A DNA stretch of 64,000 nucleotides from Candidatus Omnitrophota bacterium. GTDB lineage: Bacteria > Omnitrophota > Gorgyraeia > B26-G9. The DNA lies in assembly GCA_016213925.1 (NCBI GenBank), contig JACQZH010000013.1, positions 14,034 through 78,033 of the forward strand. The letters are read 5' to 3'. This document shows, piece by piece, positions 24,405 through 53,472 of the stretch (positions within the stretch are counted from its first letter, which is position 1; the number at the start of each line of letters is the position of its first letter). The position numbers were made by a program, and so were the translations under genes. The notes under the pieces were generated by a model. That model was not told the DNA's origin and made no database searches. It saw only the letters and a list, made by a program, of their open reading frames with translations.

Positions 24405-25334
24405 ATGAATAAAAACAGTAAGATTCTTATTGTCGGGTATAAAAGCATGCTTGGCAATGCTCTTGCCGATTATTTCAAAACGGAGGGTTTTAAAAATATT
24501 TTAAGCGAAGTTTTAAATAGTTTTGATTTGATGAGCCAAAGCGCGGTTAATGATTTTTTTGCGAAGGAAGAACCGGAGTTTATTTTTATGACTGATGTTA
24601 GATCCGGAGGTATTGTAGCTAATCTGGAAAGCCCGGCAGAATTTATTTATACTAATTTGCAGGTACAAAACAATATTATCCATGCCGCTTATGAGTACGC
24701 GGCGGAAAAACTTTTATTTTTGGGTAGTTCCTGCGGGTATCCTAAAGATTGTCAGCAGCCGATTAAGGAAGAGTATTTTCTTGGCGGAAAAATTGAAGAG
24801 TCAAGCGCTCCTTACGCGGTTTCCAAGATTGCAGGGATCAAGATGTGCCAGGCTTATCAAAAGCAGTACGGAGTAAATTTTATTTGTGCTGTACCTGCTA
24901 CGGTTTATGGGGGTAATGATGATTTTGACCTGAAGAGTTCGCATGTTATAAGCGCGTTGATCAGAAAATTTCATGAAGCAAAATTAAAAAATGAGGACGA
25001 GGTTAGTATCTGGGGCACAGGCAATCCTAAACGGGAGTTTTTGTATATAGATGATATGGTCAAAGCCTGTGTATTTTTGATGAATAATTATAAAAACCCT
25101 GAGATTATTAATGTTGGTTATGGAGAAGATATCAGCATCAAGGAGCTGGCTAAAACCATAAAGGATGTGGTTGGCTTTAAAGGGAAGACAGTTTTTGATA
25201 GTACAAAACCGGATGGAGCAATGCGGAAACTTTTGGATAGTACAAAAATATTTGGTCTGGGTTGGAGCCCGAAAATTAACCTAAAAATGGGAATAGAAAG
25301 AACATATAAATGGTACAAGGAGGGAGTAAAATGA
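24405..25334 (+). CDS. fcl: GDP-L-fucose synthase (GDP-4-keto-6-deoxymannose 3,5-epimerase/4-reductase)
   Basis: Near-collinear match by memory to E. coli Fcl: GGIVAN..P.EFIY.N..NIIHAA, KLLFLGSSC.YPK, YA..KIAGIK.C, SHVI.ALIR.FHEA, WG.G.P.REFL..DDM, INVG.G.D..I.ELA, FD..KPDG..RKLLD, GW. The RBS-supported start is ATG 24405; the ORF-track start at 24339 is probably upstream read-through. Confidence 0.85.
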   Translation: MNKNSKILIVGYKSMLGNALADYFKTEGFKNILSEVLNSFDLMSQSAVNDFFAKEEPEFIFMTDVRSGGIVANLESPAEFIYTNLQVQNNIIHAAYEYAAEKLLFLGSSCGYPKDCQQPIKEEYFLGGKIEESSAPYAVSKIAGIKMCQAYQKQYGVNFICAVPATVYGGNDDFDLKSSHVISALIRKFHEAKLKNEDEVSIWGTGNPKREFLYIDDMVKACVFLMNNYKNPEIINVGYGEDISIKELAKTIKDVVGFKGKTVFDSTKPDGAMRKLLDSTKIFGLGWSPKINLKMGIERTYKWYKEGVK

Positions 25335-26263
25335 AAATATTAGTTACAGGAGCTGCTGGTTATATCGGGTCGATTTTAGTGCCGGAATTATTGGAAAAAG
25401 GCCATGAGGTTATTGCTTTGGATAATTTTATGTATAACCAAAGCTCTCTATTGAACAGTTGTTTTGATAAAAAATTAACGGTGATAAGAGGCGATACTCG
25501 CGATAAGGGCATTATTGCTAATTGCTTAAAAAAGACGGATGCTATTTTTCCGCTTGCTTGTTTAACCGGTGCTCCGCTATGCAATAAATTCCCGCAGGAG
25601 GCGCAATCAATTGTTGTGGATGCCATACAAATGATCCTGGAACTGCGTAGTAAGGAGCAGATGATTATCTACCCGACTACGAATAGCGGTTACGGTATCG
25701 GGCAAAAGGGCATTCATTGTGATGAAAAAACACCTTTAAATCCGATTTCATTGTACGGTAAGGTCAAAGTCGAAGCGGAAGAAAAGCTTCTTGCTTCTGG
25801 TAATGCGATTACTTTAAGGCTGGCTACCGCGTTTGGCGTCAGCCCGCGCATGCGGCTTGATTTGTTGGTGAATGATTTTGTCTACCGGGCTGTAAATGAC
25901 CGCTTTATTATACTTTTTGAAGCAGGTTTTAAACGCAATTATATACACGTACGCGATGTTGCAAAAGCTTTTATGCATTCATTAAACAATTTTAAGAAAA
26001 TGAAGAATGAGCCGTATAATGTCGGGCTTAGTGATGCTAATTTGAGTAAATGGGAATTATGCGAAGAAATAAAAAAACAGGTGCCTGATTTTTATTTTGT
26101 CGAAGCAGAGGTGGGAGAGGATCCGGATAAACGTGATTATATTGTAAGTAATGAGAAAATTGAAAAAACAGGATTTAACCCGGATTTTTCTTTAAAACGA
26201 GGGATAGAAGAATTAATAAAAGCTTATCAGATAATCAGGAGAAATCAGTTTGCCAATATTTAG
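25331..26263 (+). CDS. NAD-dependent epimerase/dehydratase (extended SDR). It could be the dehydratase partner of fcl, but this is unproven.
   Basis: Motifs ILVTGAAGYIGSIL and a YGKVK catalytic Y..K. An AAGGAGGGAG RBS precedes it. A 4-nt overlap with fcl couples the two genes. Confidence 0.7.
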   Translation: MKILVTGAAGYIGSILVPELLEKGHEVIALDNFMYNQSSLLNSCFDKKLTVIRGDTRDKGIIANCLKKTDAIFPLACLTGAPLCNKFPQEAQSIVVDAIQMILELRSKEQMIIYPTTNSGYGIGQKGIHCDEKTPLNPISLYGKVKVEAEEKLLASGNAITLRLATAFGVSPRMRLDLLVNDFVYRAVNDRFIILFEAGFKRNYIHVRDVAKAFMHSLNNFKKMKNEPYNVGLSDANLSKWELCEEIKKQVPDFYFVEAEVGEDPDKRDYIVSNEKIEKTGFNPDFSLKRGIEELIKAYQIIRRNQFANI

Positions 26264-46007: not shown

Positions 46008-46036
46008 TTGACATTAAAAAATAGTTTTGATACATA
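46008..46036 (+). promoter_or_regulatory. Candidate promoter for the pilin gene
   Basis: TTGACA (46008-46013), a 17-nt spacer, then TGaTACATA, an extended -10-like element ending at 46036. This is about 45 nt upstream of ATG 46083. Confidence 0.3.
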
Positions 46037-46082
46037 TATAACCAATAGAAGAAATATGAGTTTAAAAATAGGGGAGGAAAAA

Positions 46083-46499
46083 ATGGATAAAAAGGGTTTT
46101 ACGCTTGTTGAACTTTTGATGGTAGTTATCATCATCGGTATACTTGTTACTTTGGCAGTACCAAACTACTATCGTTCTATCGAAAGAGCAAAGGCAGGAA
46201 AAGCGAAAGCAGCTATGGACGCGATTAGAAAAGCAGAGATTCAATATCGCGCTTTTAATGATGAATATATAGACTTAAATGGAGACATGGCTGAATTAGA
46301 ACCGTATGATCTTCCGGCTGATATTGTGGATGATGCTAATGATAGTGATTGGACATATTCTGTCGACGGATCCGGTGAAGATGCTATGCTTATTCATGCT
46401 GAAAGAGATGATGGGCCTAACGCCACAGAAGAATTAACGATGGACCAGGACGGAGTTATGGCTAATCCGGGCGCTATCCCGGAATGGGGAGTTAACTAA
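46083..46499 (+). CDS. Type IV pilin/pseudopilin with an N-terminal prepilin methylation motif
   Basis: MDKKGFTLVELLMVVIIIGIL is a class III signal peptide (G|FTLVE). An AGGGGAGGAAAAA RBS lies upstream. The ORF-track start at 46008 is read-through of the leader. Confidence 0.85.
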   Translation: MDKKGFTLVELLMVVIIIGILVTLAVPNYYRSIERAKAGKAKAAMDAIRKAEIQYRAFNDEYIDLNGDMAELEPYDLPADIVDDANDSDWTYSVDGSGEDAMLIHAERDDGPNATEELTMDQDGVMANPGAIPEWGVN

Positions 46500-46635: not shown

Positions 46636-47706
46636 ATGCGGATAATCGCCATTGCTAATCAGAAAGGGGGATGCGGCAAAACAACTACGGCAATTAATCT
46701 TAGCGCGTGTCTTTCTAAACTTGGCAGGAATGTATTGCTGATTGATTTGGACCCACAAGGGCACGCTACCTTGGGATTAAATGTGAATCCCAACGATCAG
46801 GATAAAACAATGTACAATGTGTTAACTCCTCTTTTGGAAAAAAGATTACGCCTTGATGAAATTATTATTCCTATTTCTGATGGCCTTGACCTTGCGCCGG
46901 CAAATATTTTATTATCCGCGATCGAACAAGAACTTTCCGGCAAACCGGAACGAGAGGCAAGGCTTTCGCAGGCGATTTCCTTAATGGTTACGGATAAGAC
47001 TTATGAGTTCATTATAATTGATTGTTCCCCAAGCCTAGGGATGTTGACATTCAACGCGTTACGGGCTTGCCGCGAACTTATTTCTCCGGTTGATACGGGG
47101 TTCTTTTCTTTGCATGGGATCGGTAAATTAATTGAAACGGTTAAGCTGATTGAAAAAGAGTTAAGATATAAAATCCCCGTAACAGCTTTGGTTACTATGT
47201 TTGATCAGCGCACAAAGTTTTCACACGAGGTGAAAGAAGAAATTAACAAATATTTTTCAGGAAACGTATTCTCTGCGTCTATCCGTAATAATGTGCGTTT
47301 AAAAGAGGCGTCAAGTTATGGTAAGGCGGTAATTGATTATGATAAGCGCTCGAGCGGCGCGCTGGATTATTCTGCTGTTGCAAAAGAATTAATTTATGGA
47401 ATTGTTAAAAAAGAAGAGCCGGTTAACCCGATAAAATTAAGCAGGGAAATGATCTTTAGCTTTTATGATCCGAATGCTCAAAGCGTGGAAATAGCCGGTG
47501 ACTTTAATAATTGGACAGCAACTCAAGAAAGCAAACTTGAATATTTAAATGATGGTAAATGGAAAAAAGAGTTTAGCCTTGAGCCTGGCCGTTACCGCTA
47601 TAAATTCGTAGTAGACGGTAAATGGGTCGTTGATCCCAATAATCCGAATACAGAGCCGGACAATAGCGGGAATATTAATTCGCTATTAGAAATAAAAAAG
47701 GATTGA
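46636..47706 (+). CDS. ParA/MinD-family P-loop ATPase fused to a C-terminal CBM48/AMPK-beta-like glucan-binding domain
   Basis: Deviant Walker A KGGCGKTT at the N-terminus. The C-terminal ~100 aa (IFSFYDPNAQSVEIAGDFNNW..GRYRYKFVVDGKWVVDPNNPNTEPDNSGNINS) matches the AMPK-beta / CBM48 glycogen-binding signature. A GAGGAGGG RBS precedes it. Confidence 0.75.
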   Translation: MRIIAIANQKGGCGKTTTAINLSACLSKLGRNVLLIDLDPQGHATLGLNVNPNDQDKTMYNVLTPLLEKRLRLDEIIIPISDGLDLAPANILLSAIEQELSGKPEREARLSQAISLMVTDKTYEFIIIDCSPSLGMLTFNALRACRELISPVDTGFFSLHGIGKLIETVKLIEKELRYKIPVTALVTMFDQRTKFSHEVKEEINKYFSGNVFSASIRNNVRLKEASSYGKAVIDYDKRSSGALDYSAVAKELIYGIVKKEEPVNPIKLSREMIFSFYDPNAQSVEIAGDFNNWTATQESKLEYLNDGKWKKEFSLEPGRYRYKFVVDGKWVVDPNNPNTEPDNSGNINSLLEIKKD

Positions 47707-47721
47707 TTTTTGGGTAAATAA

Positions 47722-48639
47722 ATGAGCAAAGTTAAAAAATTGGGTAAAGGCCTTGAGGATATATCGCATTTGTTCTTGTCTTCAGGAGATAAAGAAATTT
47801 CTTTTTCAGGCCAGGAGCAATCTTTATTACTAACACGGACTAAAAGTATCTGTCTTGTCGGTAATGGGGCTAAATTTCATGATTCTTTTCTGGTTATAAA
47901 TCTTGCGCTGGCTTTAGCCCGCTTGGGCATGCGCATTGCTGTGGTAGACGCCGATGAGGATCTTCCTTGTTTAAATTTTCTTCTCGGCAAAGAACAATCT
48001 AATAACGGAATAAATACAAGCGAAGTGTTTATCCAAAAAGGCCCTTTGGGGGTTCAGCTGGTGGGCTTAAATCAGAAGCGTTTAAGCCAGTTTCCCGATG
48101 CTCAAAAACAGGAATATATGCTTGAACAGTTGAGACAGGTGGAAAATGAGGTTGATTTAATAATGGTTAGTATGGCGCGCAGGAATTTACAGGATATGCG
48201 CCGGTTTTTAGAGAATTCTATCAGGGAATTTTTAGTTTTAGTATCTCCTGATAAGGACGATATGCTTTCCGCTTATGCGGTGATAAAGTCAATTTTCAAT
48301 GCGGATATTTTGGCGAAAATAGGCGTGATTATCACAGAGATAAATCATATGTATGAGATCGATGCGGTTTATGATAAGTTATACCAAGCTGTGCAGAAAT
48401 TTTTGGATAAACAGTTATATAAGTACGGATTTCTTTTTAAGATAAATCAGGATGTTGATTCTACGGCAAATATAGCGTCATTCTATGACGCGGATCTTAC
48501 AGCCTGCATTTCTAATATTGCCCAGATTGTTGTTTTAAGGTTGAACCTGGGCAATGAATCATCTGCCGGCGGGGCATTTTTTACGCGTTTATTTAATAAT
48601 TACCGGAGAATTGAAAATAATGGCAACGGTATTTCGTAA
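47722..48639 (+). CDS. Degenerate ParA/MinD-like protein (no canonical Walker A) with a ParB-like N-terminal peptide KKLGKGLEDISHLFLS
   Basis: The region ICLVGNGAKFHDSFLVINLALALARLGMRIAVVDAD resembles a ParA/MinD fold with a degenerate P-loop. The N-terminal LGKGLE motif resembles the ParA-activating LG(R/K)GL N-terminus of ParB proteins. Confidence 0.5.
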   Translation: MSKVKKLGKGLEDISHLFLSSGDKEISFSGQEQSLLLTRTKSICLVGNGAKFHDSFLVINLALALARLGMRIAVVDADEDLPCLNFLLGKEQSNNGINTSEVFIQKGPLGVQLVGLNQKRLSQFPDAQKQEYMLEQLRQVENEVDLIMVSMARRNLQDMRRFLENSIREFLVLVSPDKDDMLSAYAVIKSIFNADILAKIGVIITEINHMYEIDAVYDKLYQAVQKFLDKQLYKYGFLFKINQDVDSTANIASFYDADLTACISNIAQIVVLRLNLGNESSAGGAFFTRLFNNYRRIENNGNGIS

Positions 48640-49264
48640 ATCTCAAATTGATAAAGAAAAGCTTAGGGAAATTATTTTAAAAAATCCGGATGATTTGTTG
48701 CCGGGTTTAAGTTTTATTGACCAGCAGATTGGTTCTGAAGAATACGGTATTATTGATTTTCTTGGAGTAAACGTTAAGGGCGAGCTGATAATAGTTAATT
48801 TGGGGACAGCTATTAATGAAGGTCTCTTGGTTTCTTCTTTGAGCCAGCTAACTTGGCTTAAAGAAAATAAAAGTCTGCTTAAACGTTTATTTTTTAGCGA
48901 AAATATTGATTTTGATAAAGCTCCTCAAATAGTGCTTGTTGGAAACTGGTTTTCAGAGAGGTTCAAGTTTGCAGTTTTCCAGTTGCCGCGGCAAAATATC
49001 CATTTGATAGAATATAAGTACCTTATCGCGGAAGGTAAAGATGCGATAATTTTCGAAGAAATTGCGGATAAGAATCGCTGTGAGTGCGAGCCAGCCGCTC
49101 CCAGGCAACCGCAAACGGAAAATATTCCGGAGAATAGAGCGCATCTAACTGTCCAATCAAAGGATACTCTTTGGAAATCGCAAAAAGAACTGCTTACCAG
49201 CGAAGAAATAGCTGAATTTTTGGATTTTGACTTCAATCTTGGCGAAGAAAGGCCAGCAGCATAA
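48620..49264 (+). CDS. PD-(D/E)xK nuclease-like (DUF91/NucS-like fold) protein
   Basis: The GIIDFLGVNVKGELIIVNL block resembles the D..(D/E)xK core of DUF91/NucS-type nucleases. A GGAGA RBS precedes ATG 48620. The ORF-track start at 48554 overlaps the upstream gene. Confidence 0.35.
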   Translation: MATVFRKSQIDKEKLREIILKNPDDLLPGLSFIDQQIGSEEYGIIDFLGVNVKGELIIVNLGTAINEGLLVSSLSQLTWLKENKSLLKRLFFSENIDFDKAPQIVLVGNWFSERFKFAVFQLPRQNIHLIEYKYLIAEGKDAIIFEEIADKNRCECEPAAPRQPQTENIPENRAHLTVQSKDTLWKSQKELLTSEEIAEFLDFDFNLGEERPAA

Positions 49265-49310
49265 TGTCCCGGCGCAGGTTGTTCTTAACAGCATATCGTA
49301 TTTTTAAATA

Positions 49311-50087
49311 ATGACTGAAGAAAAGAAACAATTAAAAAGAAAATCCGAATCAGGTTATTATTATAGCCGGTTGATCCCAAAGAACATAATCTGCGCCTTT
49401 ACCACCAGAGAACATGATTACGGCTTGCGTAATGCCGAAAACTTTCATGAGTACAGTAATAATCTTAAGGCGCGTTTAAATTTTTTTAACCGTTTTGGCG
49501 GAAAACCTGAAAATATAGTTTTTTTTGAGCAGGTTCACAAGGCGAATATTTCAGTAGTTGAAAAAAAAGATTGCGGCAGCGGAGTTTTTGATTTTAGAAA
49601 CGCGCTGCGTTCTTCTGATGCCGCGGTTTGCCAAACTGCGGATATTGGCTTATGTATATTAACGGCTGATTGTTTGCCGGTATTCTTTATTGAGCCTAAA
49701 AAAAAGGTTATTGGGATTGCTCATGCCGGATGGCGAGGGACAAATCTTGGCATCTCTGTCCGGACTGTTAAAGTAATGGTAAATAATTTTCAGGCTGATC
49801 CAAATAATATAGAAGTGTATTTTGGCCCTGGAATACGCGTGTGTTGTTATGAAGTAGGCAGGGAGCTCTTACCGTTTTTTCCTGAACAGATTAAAAAGCG
49901 AGGGAAACGTTTTTACCTGGATCTGGTAAAGGCAAATATTACAAGGTTGAAAAAGGCAGGTATTAAAACAGAAAATATATTTGATGCAGGCATCTGCACA
50001 AAGTGTAATAACGATAAGTTTTTTTCTTTTCGCGCAGGAGATACTTATAAAAGGATGATGAGCCTAATCATGATAAAAAACAAATAG
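49311..50087 (+). CDS. YfiH/PgeF (DUF152, laccase-domain, purine nucleoside phosphorylase-like) family protein
   Basis: Motifs LTADCLPVFF and IAHAGWRGT are characteristic of DUF152. Confidence 0.7.
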   Translation: MTEEKKQLKRKSESGYYYSRLIPKNIICAFTTREHDYGLRNAENFHEYSNNLKARLNFFNRFGGKPENIVFFEQVHKANISVVEKKDCGSGVFDFRNALRSSDAAVCQTADIGLCILTADCLPVFFIEPKKKVIGIAHAGWRGTNLGISVRTVKVMVNNFQADPNNIEVYFGPGIRVCCYEVGRELLPFFPEQIKKRGKRFYLDLVKANITRLKKAGIKTENIFDAGICTKCNNDKFFSFRAGDTYKRMMSLIMIKNK

Positions 50088-50243
50088 TTAGCAGTAATCA
50101 ACCTTTTGCGCGCCATTGCGAAAAAAGAAGATAGTGCGCTGTAGAAATATCTCCTTGACTTTTATTAATAAAAGTAGTAATGTTAAGGGCACGGTAAATT
50201 TTAGAATGTAATAAATAATTGCTGATTTTAGCCATGAATAATT

Positions 50244-51686
50244 ATGAAGAAAATAAAAAAAACTGTTAATAAATCCAATAAGCTGCAACATTTTAAAACA
50301 GGGTTTCCTGAAAAGACAGAAATAATTTTAAGAAAAACACAGCAGAGGAAAGTTACCCCGACTACAAAAAAATTAGGCAAAGGGCTTGAAGATATATCTT
50401 ATTTATTTTTATCCGGTTCGGATAAAAATAAACAAGCTGGGAGACAGCCAGTATCCAGCCGTTCGACAGTTAAAAAAATTGCGCCAAAGACTGAAAAAAC
50501 TTCTGTAAGAACTTTGGAATCGGCTTCTGTGAAAAAAACTAAAAAAGTTTCTGCCAAGGCTCCTGCGGTTAAGGCGAAGATAAAAACAAAAGCCCGGATA
50601 AATAAAACAGAACCTATAATAATAAGTAGAAAAACAGGGGTGATAACAATGGATAAAATTCAAAAAAACGGCTCAACACAAAAAAATAATGTTGAAGCTA
50701 AAAAAGTATCAAAAACCGAGGAAAAGAAAAGCTTGGAAACTCTAAAGAAGAAAACATCCAGGCTGGGTTCAATCAGCGAATTAAAAACATTATTCAAGAA
50801 AAAAATATCGCAGCCTGTGCCGGAAAATATCCAGCAGGAACAGGTAATTGAGGAAAGTAAATTTTTTGTCGGGCCGGCGGTATCTGAGTTGCAAAAACAG
50901 GAAATACAGGCGAGTGATATCCCTTCCGGGTACGGCGACAATCGTATTGTTATTCAGGTAAGAGATCCTTACTGGTTGCATTCTTATTGGGAAATTACAG
51001 CGGAGAAAATAAACTCTTTAAGAAATGAAATAGGCGATGTCATTGATTCTGCCAAAAGGATATTGAGAATTTATGATATTACAAATGTTGTATTTGACGG
51101 TTCCAACGCGAATAAATTTTTTGATATTGAAATAAATAATCATGCCAATAACTGGTATATTCATACCGGAGAAGCTGGGCGCGGCTATTGCGTCGATATC
51201 GGGCTGATACTGCCTGATGGGCGGTTTATTCTTTTAGCTAGGTCGAATTGTGTTGCTACCCCGATAGACGGGCCAAGCTGGATTACAGATGAAGAATGGA
51301 TGGTTATAGAAGATGATTTTAACCGCTTGTACGGTTTATCCGCAGGTTTGGGTATTGGGTTAAGCTCCATGGAATTAAGGAAACAGATAAAGGAAAAGAT
51401 GAAACATATCTCTTCCGGTATGGTTTCGTCTGCGGGCTTGGCCAGGAAAGCCGCTGAACGAAAATTTTGGCTTGTGGTAAATACCGAATTGATAGTATAT
51501 GGCGCGACTGAGCCGGATGCAAGTGTTTCCATCCAGGGCAGGCCAATAAAATTAAATGCGGATGGCACATTTAGTATTCGTTTTGCGTTACCTGATGGAG
51601 AGCAGGTAATACCTGTTAAAGCTGTTTCCGCAGATGGCTTTGAGGAAAGGGTTATTACTCCGGAAGTGCAGAAAAAAACCACATAA
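50244..51686 (+). CDS. Lys-rich protein with a ParB-like N-terminal peptide (TKKLGKGLEDISYLFLS) and a C-terminal DUF4912-like domain
   Basis: The N-terminal motif is shared with the 47722 gene. A low-complexity K/T/S-rich linker follows. The C-terminal about 220 aa (RIVIQVRDPYWLHSYWEI..NNWYIHTGEAGRGYCVDIG) resembles DUF4912, which to my recollection is often encoded next to GH57 genes. Confidence 0.55.
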   Translation: MKKIKKTVNKSNKLQHFKTGFPEKTEIILRKTQQRKVTPTTKKLGKGLEDISYLFLSGSDKNKQAGRQPVSSRSTVKKIAPKTEKTSVRTLESASVKKTKKVSAKAPAVKAKIKTKARINKTEPIIISRKTGVITMDKIQKNGSTQKNNVEAKKVSKTEEKKSLETLKKKTSRLGSISELKTLFKKKISQPVPENIQQEQVIEESKFFVGPAVSELQKQEIQASDIPSGYGDNRIVIQVRDPYWLHSYWEITAEKINSLRNEIGDVIDSAKRILRIYDITNVVFDGSNANKFFDIEINNHANNWYIHTGEAGRGYCVDIGLILPDGRFILLARSNCVATPIDGPSWITDEEWMVIEDDFNRLYGLSAGLGIGLSSMELRKQIKEKMKHISSGMVSSAGLARKAAERKFWLVVNTELIVYGATEPDASVSIQGRPIKLNADGTFSIRFALPDGEQVIPVKAVSADGFEERVITPEVQKKTT

Positions 51687-51762: not shown

Positions 51763-51891
51763 ATTGTTTCCATTGTTAAATATCTTGAATTATGAAAATT
51801 AGTATGTTAAACTAATTACATTATTTTTCTGACTGATCCAGAGTTTTTGGAAAACTATTATAAAATGAGTGTTTTAAAAAGGAAAAACAAA

Positions 51892-53472
51892 ATGGAAAAA
51901 GGATATCTTTGTATTGTTTTACATGGGCACTTACCGTTTGTACGGCATCCCGAACATGAAAATTTTTTGGAAGAGGAATGGTTATATGAAGCAATTACCG
52001 AAACATATATTCCTTTATTAGTAATGTTCGAGCGCTTGTTAGCGGATAATGTTGATTTCCGTGTAACGATAGGATTGTCTCCGACTTTGATTTCCATGTT
52101 AATGGATTCTTTGTTGCAGCAACGTTATATGCGCCATATAGATAAATTGATCGAATTGGCCAGCCGGGAAGTCGAACGTACGCGCTGGCAGCCTGAATTC
52201 AATAAACTTGCGTTAATGTATCTTAGTAAGCTGAATCTTGCCAGGTATACATTTGCTGAAAAATATCATCGCAATATCGTTGAAGGATTTAAGAGAGTTC
52301 AAGATGCTGGAAAACTGGAAATTATGACTTGCGGGGCAACGCACGGTTATTTTCCGCTTATGGATGTTACTAAGGCTTCAATTCGCGCGCAGGTACGTGT
52401 TGCTGTAAATCAGTATAAAAGTGTTTTTGGCCGAAACCCAAGGGGTATTTGGCTTCCGGAATGCGGTTATCAGCCTGGAGATGATGAAATCCTTAAGGAT
52501 TGCGGGTTAAGATATTTTTTCGGAGATACACATGCTGTACTGCATGGTGTCCCTCGTCCCAAATATGGGGTTTTTGCTCCGGTTTATTGTAAATCCGGAG
52601 TCGCTTGTTTTGGCCGTGATGTGGAATCTTCAAAGCAGGTTTGGAGCGCAGCTCAAGGGTATCCTGGTGATTATAACTACCGTGAGTTTTATCGTGATAT
52701 TGGCTTTGATCTGGATTTTGATTATATAAAGCCATATATACATCCGGATGGGATAAGGACTAATACCGGAATAAAATATTACCGGATTACCGGTAAAACA
52801 GACCATAAGCAGCCTTATGTTCCGGAAATAGCAATGGAAACAGCAGCTAGTCATGCCGCCAATTTTATGTTTAACCGGGAAAAACAAGTTGAATATGTAT
52901 ACGGCCTGATAAAAAAAAGGCCGATTATAGTTTCTCCTTATGACGCAGAACTATTCGGGCATTGGTGGTATGAAGGCCCGGAATGGCTGGATTTTCTTAT
53001 CCGGAAGATAGCTTATGACCAGAAAACAATTAAACTTATTAACCCTTCTGAATATCTGGAACGTTATCCGCGTAATCAGGTGATTACTCCTTCTTTATCG
53101 AGTTGGGGGTGGAAGGGGTATTCAGAGTTTTGGCTGGAAGGTTCTAATGACTGGATTTACCGTCATTTACATAAGGCATCTGAACGCATGAATAGGTTAA
53201 CTCAATTATATCCGCAGGCGCAAGGTGTGTTGGTACGTGCTTTAAACCAGGCTTTAAGAGAACTATTGCTGGCGCAAAGTTCCGATTGGGCGTTTATTAT
53301 GAAGACAGGCACGCATGTATCATACGCAGTTGAAAGGACGAAAAATCATCTGCTTAATTTTACAAAACTCTATTACCAGATCAGAAAAAATTCTATTGAT
53401 GAACCTTGGATGGCTAAACTAGAGAGCACAAACAATATTTTTCCTGATATTGATTACAAATTTCATATGTAA
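51892..53472 (+). CDS. Glycoside hydrolase family 57 enzyme (alpha-1,4-glucan branching enzyme type)
   Basis: N-terminal GYLCIVLHGHLPFVRHPEHE is the GH57 signature, with a long C-terminal alpha-helical domain. The start is probably ATG 51892 (AAAGGA RBS); alternatives are 51865 or 51847. Confidence 0.75.
   Translation: MEKGYLCIVLHGHLPFVRHPEHENFLEEEWLYEAITETYIPLLVMFERLLADNVDFRVTIGLSPTLISMLMDSLLQQRYMRHIDKLIELASREVERTRWQPEFNKLALMYLSKLNLARYTFAEKYHRNIVEGFKRVQDAGKLEIMTCGATHGYFPLMDVTKASIRAQVRVAVNQYKSVFGRNPRGIWLPECGYQPGDDEILKDCGLRYFFGDTHAVLHGVPRPKYGVFAPVYCKSGVACFGRDVESSKQVWSAAQGYPGDYNYREFYRDIGFDLDFDYIKPYIHPDGIRTNTGIKYYRITGKTDHKQPYVPEIAMETAASHAANFMFNREKQVEYVYGLIKKRPIIVSPYDAELFGHWWYEGPEWLDFLIRKIAYDQKTIKLINPSEYLERYPRNQVITPSLSSWGWKGYSEFWLEGSNDWIYRHLHKASERMNRLTQLYPQAQGVLVRALNQALRELLLAQSSDWAFIMKTGTHVSYAVERTKNHLLNFTKLYYQIRKNSIDEPWMAKLESTNNIFPDIDYKFHM

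Follow-up and report, generated by a model that had tools for sequence, protein, structure and literature searches.

A 64,000-nucleotide (nt) stretch of a Candidatus Omnitrophota genome (contig JACQZH010000013.1, positions 14,034 to 78,033), which in its entirety we call the window, contains a set of forward-strand genes running from a ParA-family ATPase fused to a carbohydrate-binding module of family CBM48 (ParA-CBM48) to a GH57 alpha-glucan branching enzyme. Two of the proteins encoded between them, a degenerate ParA-like protein (pseudo-ParA) and a DUF4912 protein, carry nearly identical copies of a short peptide. Our analysis concerns this peptide, its likeness to the N-terminal motif by which ParB/Spo0J proteins stimulate ParA, and the module in which it occurs. 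Domains of the window genes were called with Pfam and NCBIfam profiles, and the features, in window coordinates, are as follows.

46636..47706, + strand: ParA-CBM48 (Pfam AAA_31, 3.6e-50; AMPK1_CBM/CBM48, 2.5e-16)
47722..48639, + strand: pseudo-ParA, 305 amino acids (aa); weak Pfam CbiA (CbiA/MinD-like) match, 7e-7; Walker A lost
47734-47781, + strand: peptide copy 1, KKLGKGLEDISHLFLS, residues 5-20 of pseudo-ParA
48620..49264, + strand: NucS-fold protein; no Pfam match and a weak NucS match; no N-terminal peptide in the window copy
49196-49219, + strand: TSEEIAEF, a motif of the [ST]xEEIxEF type at the C-terminal end of the disordered tail of the 48620-49264 product
49311..50087, + strand: PgeF/YfiH-family gene (Pfam Cu-oxidase_4, 3e-57; NCBIfam PgeF), between the two carriers
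50244..51686, + strand: DUF4912 protein, 480 aa (Pfam DUF4912, 1e-36; Glucodextran_B, 4e-6)
50367-50414, + strand: peptide copy 2, KKLGKGLEDISYLFLS, residues 42-57 of the DUF4912 protein
50415-50930, + strand: K-rich linker of the DUF4912 protein, after its K-rich leader and the peptide
50931-51290, + strand: DUF4912 domain (Pfam)
51495-51647, + strand: C-terminal Glucodextran_B-like beta domain of the DUF4912 protein, borderline (Pfam, 4e-6)
51847..53472, + strand: GH57 alpha-glucan branching enzyme (Pfam Glyco_hydro_57 and BE_C)

These calls bear out the initial annotation where it placed a ParA-CBM48 in the window and described one peptide carrier as a degenerate ParA-like protein and the other as a DUF4912 protein next to GH57. 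The DUF4912 match (Pfam PF16258) passes its gathering threshold with 126 bits against a cut-off of 29.4. The PgeF/YfiH gene holds a syntenic position across Omnitrophota, and its role in the module is not evident.

The two peptides lie exactly where the initial annotation had located them and are identical at 15 of 16 residues; in a six-frame scan of the window they were the only LG[KR]GL-type sites of this kind. At the DNA level the 48-nt stretches differ at 10 bases, corresponding to 9 synonymous codons and a single non-synonymous one (H/Y), and the 60 nt flanking each copy are 32-33% identical, which is the random level. Because the differences are nearly all synonymous and the flanks are unrelated, the identity is maintained at the protein level, in agreement with the earlier proposal of selection on the peptide. 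A recent duplication or gene conversion is ruled out by the 9 synonymous differences, the random flanks and the independent H/Y/T variation among orthologs. By a rough estimate, such pairs would be expected by chance about 6e-8 times in the window (~1e5 six-frame residues, ~8e9 pairs, p ~7e-18 for each).

To define the distribution of the peptide, a profile was searched against 1.84e9 representative proteins (E<=1e-3), yielding 51 proteins in which the motif mostly falls within the first 30 residues and otherwise within the first ~75. Most of these are pseudo-ParA-like proteins of ~300 aa, while a second class of 200-240 aa combines the peptide with a domain homologous to the 48620-49264 product, the NucS-fold protein. 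The family consensus of the peptide is [KR][KRP]-L-G-[KR]-G-L-E-[DE]-[IVF]-S-[HY]-L-F-L-S. We also scanned one genome per species (185,579 species) with a degenerate DNA pattern for LG[KR]GLE[DE]xS[HY]LF and found 68 loci, where ~0.5 would be expected by our own estimate from the information content of the pattern. The loci, all derived from metagenome-assembled genomes (MAGs) or metagenomes, span about ten phyla and include Omnitrophota, Vicinamibacterales and other Acidobacteriota, Rokubacteria/Methylomirabilota, Thermodesulfobacteriota, Gemmatimonadales, Nitrospirae, Zixibacteria, Latescibacterota and MAGs labelled Planctomycetes.

The carrier gene is directly preceded by a ParA gene in 66 of the 66 loci that extend upstream of it, the other two loci ending at the peptide gene. 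The KGGxGK[ST] sequence is intact in every ParA whose N-terminus is covered, and a C-terminal CBM48 was detected on ParA in 64 of the 66. The distance from the ParA stop codon to the start of the motif is 5-506 nt, and below 150 nt in most loci. What the peptide is attached to changes from locus to locus. In 31 loci the scaffold is a pseudo-ParA and in 35 it is a NucS-fold protein, and a peptide-bearing NucS-fold protein and a pseudo-ParA gene exclude one another with zero exceptions. The first architecture (type I) has ParA-CBM48, then a pseudo-ParA with the peptide, then a NucS-fold protein lacking it; it occurs in Omnitrophota, Thermodesulfobacteriota, Zixibacteria, Nitrospirae and Latescibacterota, often with GH57 or a stand-alone CBM48 open reading frame (ORF) nearby. 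The second (type II) has ParA-CBM48 followed by a NucS-fold protein that bears the peptide itself, with no pseudo-ParA, and is found in Acidobacteriota, Rokubacteria, Gemmatimonadales and Planctomycetales.

A metagenome scan for ParA-CBM48, the figures from which refer to the matches listed and are not a census, added to the DUF4912 protein a fourth scaffold: in two loci (L076 and L077) a 180-aa protein lies directly after ParA-CBM48 and has only the peptide in common with the other carriers, and no NucS-fold gene is present in the available sequence of either. The peptide is also retained in five loci where ParA lacks CBM48 (L004, L006, L025, L093 and L102), so its target is not the carbohydrate-binding module. 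In one of these, L004, ParA shares 51% identity with its window counterpart and the partner, outside the peptide, only ~23%, which indicates uneven rates of change. Since the scaffold changes and both CBM48 and the NucS-fold gene can be dispensed with, the one element that always accompanies the peptide is the ATPase domain of ParA. The carriers themselves are not ParB proteins, as no ParBc domain was matched by Pfam in either window carrier or in the other representative carriers scanned.

Within carrier families, the peptide is kept in orthologs on both sides. Among 33 aligned pseudo-ParA homologs the most conserved columns are those of the peptide (K5, L7, G8, K9, L11, D13, I14, S15, L17, F18 and S20), and relatives with 23-28% overall identity still begin KRLGKGLEDISHLFLS. 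For DUF4912, the best 120 relatives include 23 with the peptide, all of them among the 26 closest and all long Omnitrophota forms of 468-624 aa. In 22 of the 23 the sequence K[KR]LG[KR]GL[EKR][DE]IS[HYTA]LF stands at residues ~41-63, behind a K-rich leader in which nothing else can be aligned; the remaining protein, P0066, is annotated as starting at the motif. Short DUF4912 forms among the same 120 relatives lack the peptide, even in genomes that have a pseudo-ParA. The variable position is mostly Y in pseudo-ParA and mostly H or T in DUF4912; the two copies thus vary independently, and each must long have been under separate purifying selection. The DUF4912-borne copy is restricted to some Omnitrophota (six of the 68 genome loci, and the window), which would make DUF4912 a secondary client; the primary carrier is the pseudo-ParA, or the NucS-fold protein in other phyla.

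Many of the short DUF4912 proteins without the LGKGL peptide (313-366 aa; among P0095-P0169) share a different basic amphipathic N-terminus, MAILR[KR]IKEKLKK. A PDB sequence search with the window DUF4912 protein gave spurious matches to its low-complexity K-rich region only.

The window ParA consists of a Soj-like ATPase (residues 1-~257, Walker A KGGCGKT), a linker and a C-terminal module of the CBM48/AMPK-beta type (residues ~279-355, nt 47470-47700). Its best PDB match is 8RAY, Myxococcus xanthus ParA (E 1.6e-50; 103 of 246 aligned residues identical, 42%), followed by Thermus thermophilus Soj. As 8RAY is the structure that was used to define the pocket for the ParB peptide (PMC12462528), we mapped the pocket residues given there onto the window ParA and 64 family members, with the following correspondence.

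M. xanthus L150: window L134; L, V or I in the family
M. xanthus G151: window G135; invariant G
M. xanthus L152: window M136; L, F, M or I
M. xanthus L155: window F139; F in 59 of 64
M. xanthus L187: window L171; V, L or I
M. xanthus V116: window Q98; Q or E, not conserved
M. xanthus L192: window L176; variable, not conserved
M. xanthus R238 (non-specific DNA binding): window R221; K or R in 64 of 64

By this alignment the window ParA keeps most of the ParB-peptide pocket together with the DNA-binding basic residue. The signature and Walker lysines (K10 and K15) and the catalytic D39 are invariant in the 64 members. An apparent covariation of peptide position 8 (I/V/F) with ParA residue 176 (L/T/Y), including an F-Y pairing in 9 of 9 cases, tracks phylogeny and was not counted as evidence. 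The CBM48 aligns to structures of the AMPK beta1 and beta2 carbohydrate-binding modules (E 1e-9), with FNNW and YKFxVDGxW conserved, and all 13 of the diverse members compared across phyla keep its W293, W309 and W330. Judging from these residues, the module should bind alpha-glucan, that is, glycogen.

Glycogen-type genes recur beside the module in several phyla: GH57, which also adjoins it in Thermodesulfobacteriota and Zixibacteria loci, a GT5 starch-synthase-like gene, stand-alone CBM48 ORFs and DUF4912. The CBM48-only ORFs are ~100-140 aa long and were seen in seven loci (L010, L019, L027, L029, L031, L042 and L047) from Thermodesulfobacteriota and from MAGs labelled 'delta' and Pseudomonadota, with GH57 on the opposite strand in L010, L019 and L042.

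The pseudo-ParA has GNGAKFHDS at the position of Walker A instead of KGGxGKT, and most of its 33 relatives are likewise degenerate. With the deviant Walker A lost, ATP binding by this protein is unlikely. Its AlphaFold2 (AF2) model has a predicted local distance difference test (pLDDT) score of 80, with residues 1-36 at low confidence (pLDDT below about 50), and in Foldseek its best matches are FlhG, FleN and MinD (E 7e-16 and weaker; TM 0.66/0.77). The model thus describes a MinD/FlhG-fold pseudo-ATPase with a disordered N-terminal tail that carries the peptide. In the DUF4912 protein, residues 42-57 sit within a K-rich low-complexity leader.

Loss of Walker A is not universal in the pseudo-ParA family, as P0194, a distant high-GC relative with the peptide EKRLGRGLEDFSHLFFS, keeps a GCGKT P-loop. 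Degenerate versions of the peptide occur in two further pseudo-ParA-like proteins, L099:5253-6125, where SELKHVIDLYLSKAS has lost the LGKGL half and retained the second half, and L102:1465-2316, which has LNKGLEEISHFFLS. These sequences suggest that each half of the motif may have a role of its own.

The third protein of the module, the 48620 product, has a NucS-like PD-(D/E)xK fold with 18% identity to the C-terminal nuclease domain of NucS/EndoMS, and its family has no Pfam model; a PDB sequence search with it gave a chance-level match only. The canonical D...(D/E)xK catalytic lysine is missing throughout the family, and in the window protein the acidic positions are degenerate as well (N60, G62). 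The C-terminal [ST]xEEIxEF motif is present in 18 of 29 type I NucS-fold proteins (for example in L001, L002, L010, L019 and L041) and absent from type II forms, a pattern that suggests that the NucS-fold protein may dock through this tail on the pseudo-ParA, and that the latter would present the ParA-binding peptide.

The initial annotation had likened the core of the peptide to the LG(R/K)GL motif of ParB proteins. In M. xanthus ParB the motif comprises L11, R13, L15, L18 and I19, and about half of ParBs have a central Lys (PMC12462528). T. thermophilus Spo0J, as present in PDB 1VZ0, reads GLGRGLEALLP. Peptide positions 1-8 (L7, G8, K9, G10, L11, E12, D13 and I14) fit the ParB pattern L-G-[RK]-G-L-x-x-[LI]. 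As a control we considered the genes that follow plain Soj-type ParAs: in 28 metagenome loci, among the matches listed, they begin LG[RK]GL[DSG]AL[LIF], in most cases 3-30 nt past the ParA stop codon, so that in canonical parAB the motif occupies the same position relative to ParA as in the ParA-CBM48 operons. In a log-odds 9-mer matrix built from these 28 ParB N-termini, the two window peptides rank first and second of 35,292 ORF sites.

Taken together, we consider it probable that the shared peptide is a portable short linear motif of the ParB type, which would dock on the adjacent Soj-like ParA and activate it in a glycogen-linked system. A number of observations weigh against this. The alignment with ParB N-termini holds for the first eight positions and fails beyond them: ParB has a hydrophobic residue at position i+8, where the peptide has an invariant Ser, and in a 12-residue ParB matrix the window peptides are not top-ranked, as S-[HY]-L-F replaces L-[PG]-x-x. 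Even with the 9-mer matrix the margin is small, at 9.6 bits against 8.9 for the next site. A HMMER search with the peptide profile against PDB sequences returned no chain at E<=10 and hence no statistical support for homology to ParB N-termini, and the 51 profile matches among the 1.84e9 representative proteins included no canonical ParB. Two of the mapped pocket positions, those of V116 and L192, are not conserved. In DUF4912 the peptide lies ~40-60 residues in and not at the N-terminus. Not every ParA-CBM48 is followed by a peptide gene, since among the metagenome matches listed several subfamilies have other neighbours; the CBM48 fusion and the peptide are therefore not obligately coupled, and the peptide marks one branch of a wider ParA-CBM48 family. 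Finally, a ParA that binds its own cargo is a misfit with the classical diffusion-ratchet scheme, which leaves the mechanism speculative. The resemblance to ParB is thus real for the first eight residues and modest as far as sequence goes, and the argument rests mainly on context.

The third-best site for the 9-mer matrix in the window, at 8.9 bits, is LKRGIEELI at ~26192 (+), near the C-terminus of ORF 25310..26263. Its resemblance to the motif is probably due to chance, because it is internal and close to the C-terminus of the protein.

If the peptide acts on ParA as a ParB tail does, one possible mechanism would be that it docks at the edge of the ATP-bound ParA dimer and stimulates its ATPase. 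ParA-ATP dimers would bridge glycogen, through their two CBM48 modules, and the nucleoid, and partners carrying the peptide on a disordered tail would limit the lifetime of these bridges. Glycogen granules, or the enzymes attached to them, could in this way be distributed or segregated, much as cargo is by ParABS or McdAB. In the window genome the pseudo-ParA would be the main partner and the DUF4912 protein, beside GH57, a second client of the same ATPase; the NucS-fold protein would probably join through its C-terminal TxEEIxEF motif. The description of DUF4912 as a 'cargo adaptor' in the initial annotation is a guess.

Other explanations of the peptide have to be weighed against this one. 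The module could be of the DNA-partition type, in which the NucS-fold protein is a CTP-independent centromere or nucleoid binder that substitutes for ParB and activates ParA through its tail; DNA would then be the cargo, and the role of CBM48 would be limited to anchoring ParA or regulating it, for instance through a carbon-status-dependent sequestration on glycogen. The peptide would remain a ParA activator under this scheme as well. We regard it as unlikely, given that the catalytic lysine is missing across the NucS-fold family, with N60 and G62 degenerate in the window protein, and that the consistent CBM48 fusion and the GH57, GT5 and DUF4912 neighbours point to glycogen. Repeats or a centromere-like site did not come to light either, although no search was aimed at them.

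It is also conceivable that the peptide docks on a component other than ParA, either on the NucS-fold protein or in self-association of the partners, and that the linkage to ParA reflects nothing but a shared operon. In both main architectures the NucS-fold gene is indeed found with ParA at nearly every locus, and the second motif, [ST]xEEIxEF, on type I NucS-fold proteins indicates that the module uses several short motifs. Yet in type II loci the peptide sits on the NucS-fold protein itself, and the carrier beside ParA-CBM48 in L076 and L077 is the unrelated 180-aa protein, with no NucS-fold gene in the available sequence. The peptide moreover agrees with the ParB motif in position and in its first eight residues, and the ParA pocket is largely conserved. 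Docking elsewhere is about as unlikely as DNA as the cargo. Least of all would we expect an amphipathic targeting helix (for a membrane or granule surface) or a tag for degradation or secretion, with no control of the ATPase: the hydrophobic second half I-S-H-L-F-L-S could form a short amphipathic helix, AF2 places a 3-residue helix at residues 15-17 of the pseudo-ParA and L099 drops the LGKGL half while keeping the second, but the invariant G-[KR]-G core and the acidic E-[DE] pair are atypical for membrane targeting, signal-peptide-like features are absent, and a generic tag would not be expected to lie next to ParA in 66 of 66 loci from different phyla.

The preferred reading, of a ParB-type motif acting on ParA, can be compared with known systems. 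As in ParB/Spo0J, there is a short motif in a disordered N-terminal tail, encoded by the gene directly after a Soj-type ParA, with the core L-G-[RK]-G-L-x-x-[LIV] and a central K or R (LGRGLEALL in T. thermophilus Spo0J, LGRGLEDIS in the consensus of the peptide family); the ParA is 42% identical to that of M. xanthus, with most pocket residues kept. Unlike ParB, the carriers have neither a ParB/Srx CTPase domain nor a helix-turn-helix, the peptide continues from its invariant Ser at i+8 into [HY]-L-F-L-S, and the ParA bears CBM48. The carboxysome-positioning McdA-McdB pair (PMC12139897), like other ParA/MinD cargo systems with dedicated partners, is similar in combining a ParA-family ATPase with an adjacent partner that has a disordered, charged N-terminus, and in an apparent non-DNA metabolic cargo. 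It differs in that the ATPase here is itself fused to a cargo-binding CBM48, the partners are a pseudo-ATPase, a NucS-fold or a DUF4912 protein, and the motif is ParB-like. PomXYZ of Myxococcus xanthus provides a precedent for two different proteins activating one ParA/MinD-family ATPase (PMC13170346), although PomX and PomY use different elements and sites, where here both proteins share one peptide, and the cargo and protein families are unrelated. The model of the pseudo-ParA superposes on MinD, FlhG and FleN, from which the protein differs in its extra N-terminal ParB-like tail and in the loss of Walker A in the window copy and most relatives. In addition to missing the catalytic lysine family-wide, the 48620 product differs from NucS/EndoMS in having no NucS N-terminal domain.

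ParA/MinD ATPases position chromosomes, plasmids, carboxysomes, chemoreceptor arrays, flagella and the divisome, and glycogen is the commonest bacterial carbon store. Open-access papers and bioRxiv preprints yielded no account of ParA fused to CBM48, of glycogen organised by ParA or of a function for DUF4912. Named database records list the pseudo-ParA as 'hypothetical protein' or as a generic MinD/ParA-like ATPase and the NucS-fold protein as 'hypothetical protein'. The scheme of a ParA with an activating partner is already known; what appears to be new is the glycogen cargo, the cargo-binding ATPase and the partner scaffolds. More tentatively, and at somewhat less than even odds in our judgement, these elements could form a phylum-spanning ParA system dedicated to glycogen, in which a Soj-derived ParA-CBM48 couples granules to the nucleoid and a ParB-derived activating peptide has moved among at least four unrelated scaffolds, recruiting clients that include DUF4912. 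The four scaffolds seen so far are a pseudo-ATPase, an inactivated NucS-fold protein, DUF4912 and the 180-aa protein. Were this true, a defined peptide, an ATPase and a carbohydrate module would together offer a molecular handle on whether and how bacteria organise glycogen granules. The ParB-type activating peptide would be a transferable module on unrelated proteins, which would help to predict clients of orphan ParAs from sequence. DUF4912, the pseudo-ParA and the NucS-fold protein, all three of them uncharacterised families, would receive a first functional context, as would the cassette itself in phyla about which little is known, among them Omnitrophota, Rokubacteria, Vicinamibacterales and Zixibacteria.

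Among the ParA-CBM48 subfamilies with other neighbours, one was seen in six metagenome loci (L079, L080, L082, L083, L100 and L106), where no LGKGL-type gene lies downstream. ParA-CBM48 was confirmed in the first four, and in L100 and L106 the ParA ORF runs past the contig end. Just upstream of ParA in this subfamily is an ORF of ~190 aa starting M(D/E)KK(D/E)IYEHLAKIYLD; small K-rich ORFs lie downstream in L079, L080, L082 and L083, and GH57 is found farther upstream in L079 and L083. From its sequence and place, this neighbourhood may use a different partner peptide.

A motif of related type may also occur on FtsZ. Two metagenome contigs encode FtsZ ORFs (L109:1625-2875 and L110:4773-6077) with an N-terminal extension of ~55 aa, starting MKKKTLGRGFSKILEY in L109 and MKKKRLARGFSKIIDY in L110. 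The L109 protein matches Pfam Tubulin (2e-48) and FtsZ_C. In both contigs the FtsZ ORF directly follows and overlaps a gene for a 267-aa ParA-like protein with the Walker A sequence KGGVAKTT. It is possible, going by sequence, that the extension is a ParB-like tail grafted onto FtsZ and that it would couple ParA and FtsZ directly.

Immediately 5′ of ParA-CBM48 in the window is a prepilin-type gene (N_methyl, GspG/PilA-like; 46008-46499, + strand), which keeps its place beside ParA-CBM48 in both mapped Omnitrophota relatives (L001 and L002).

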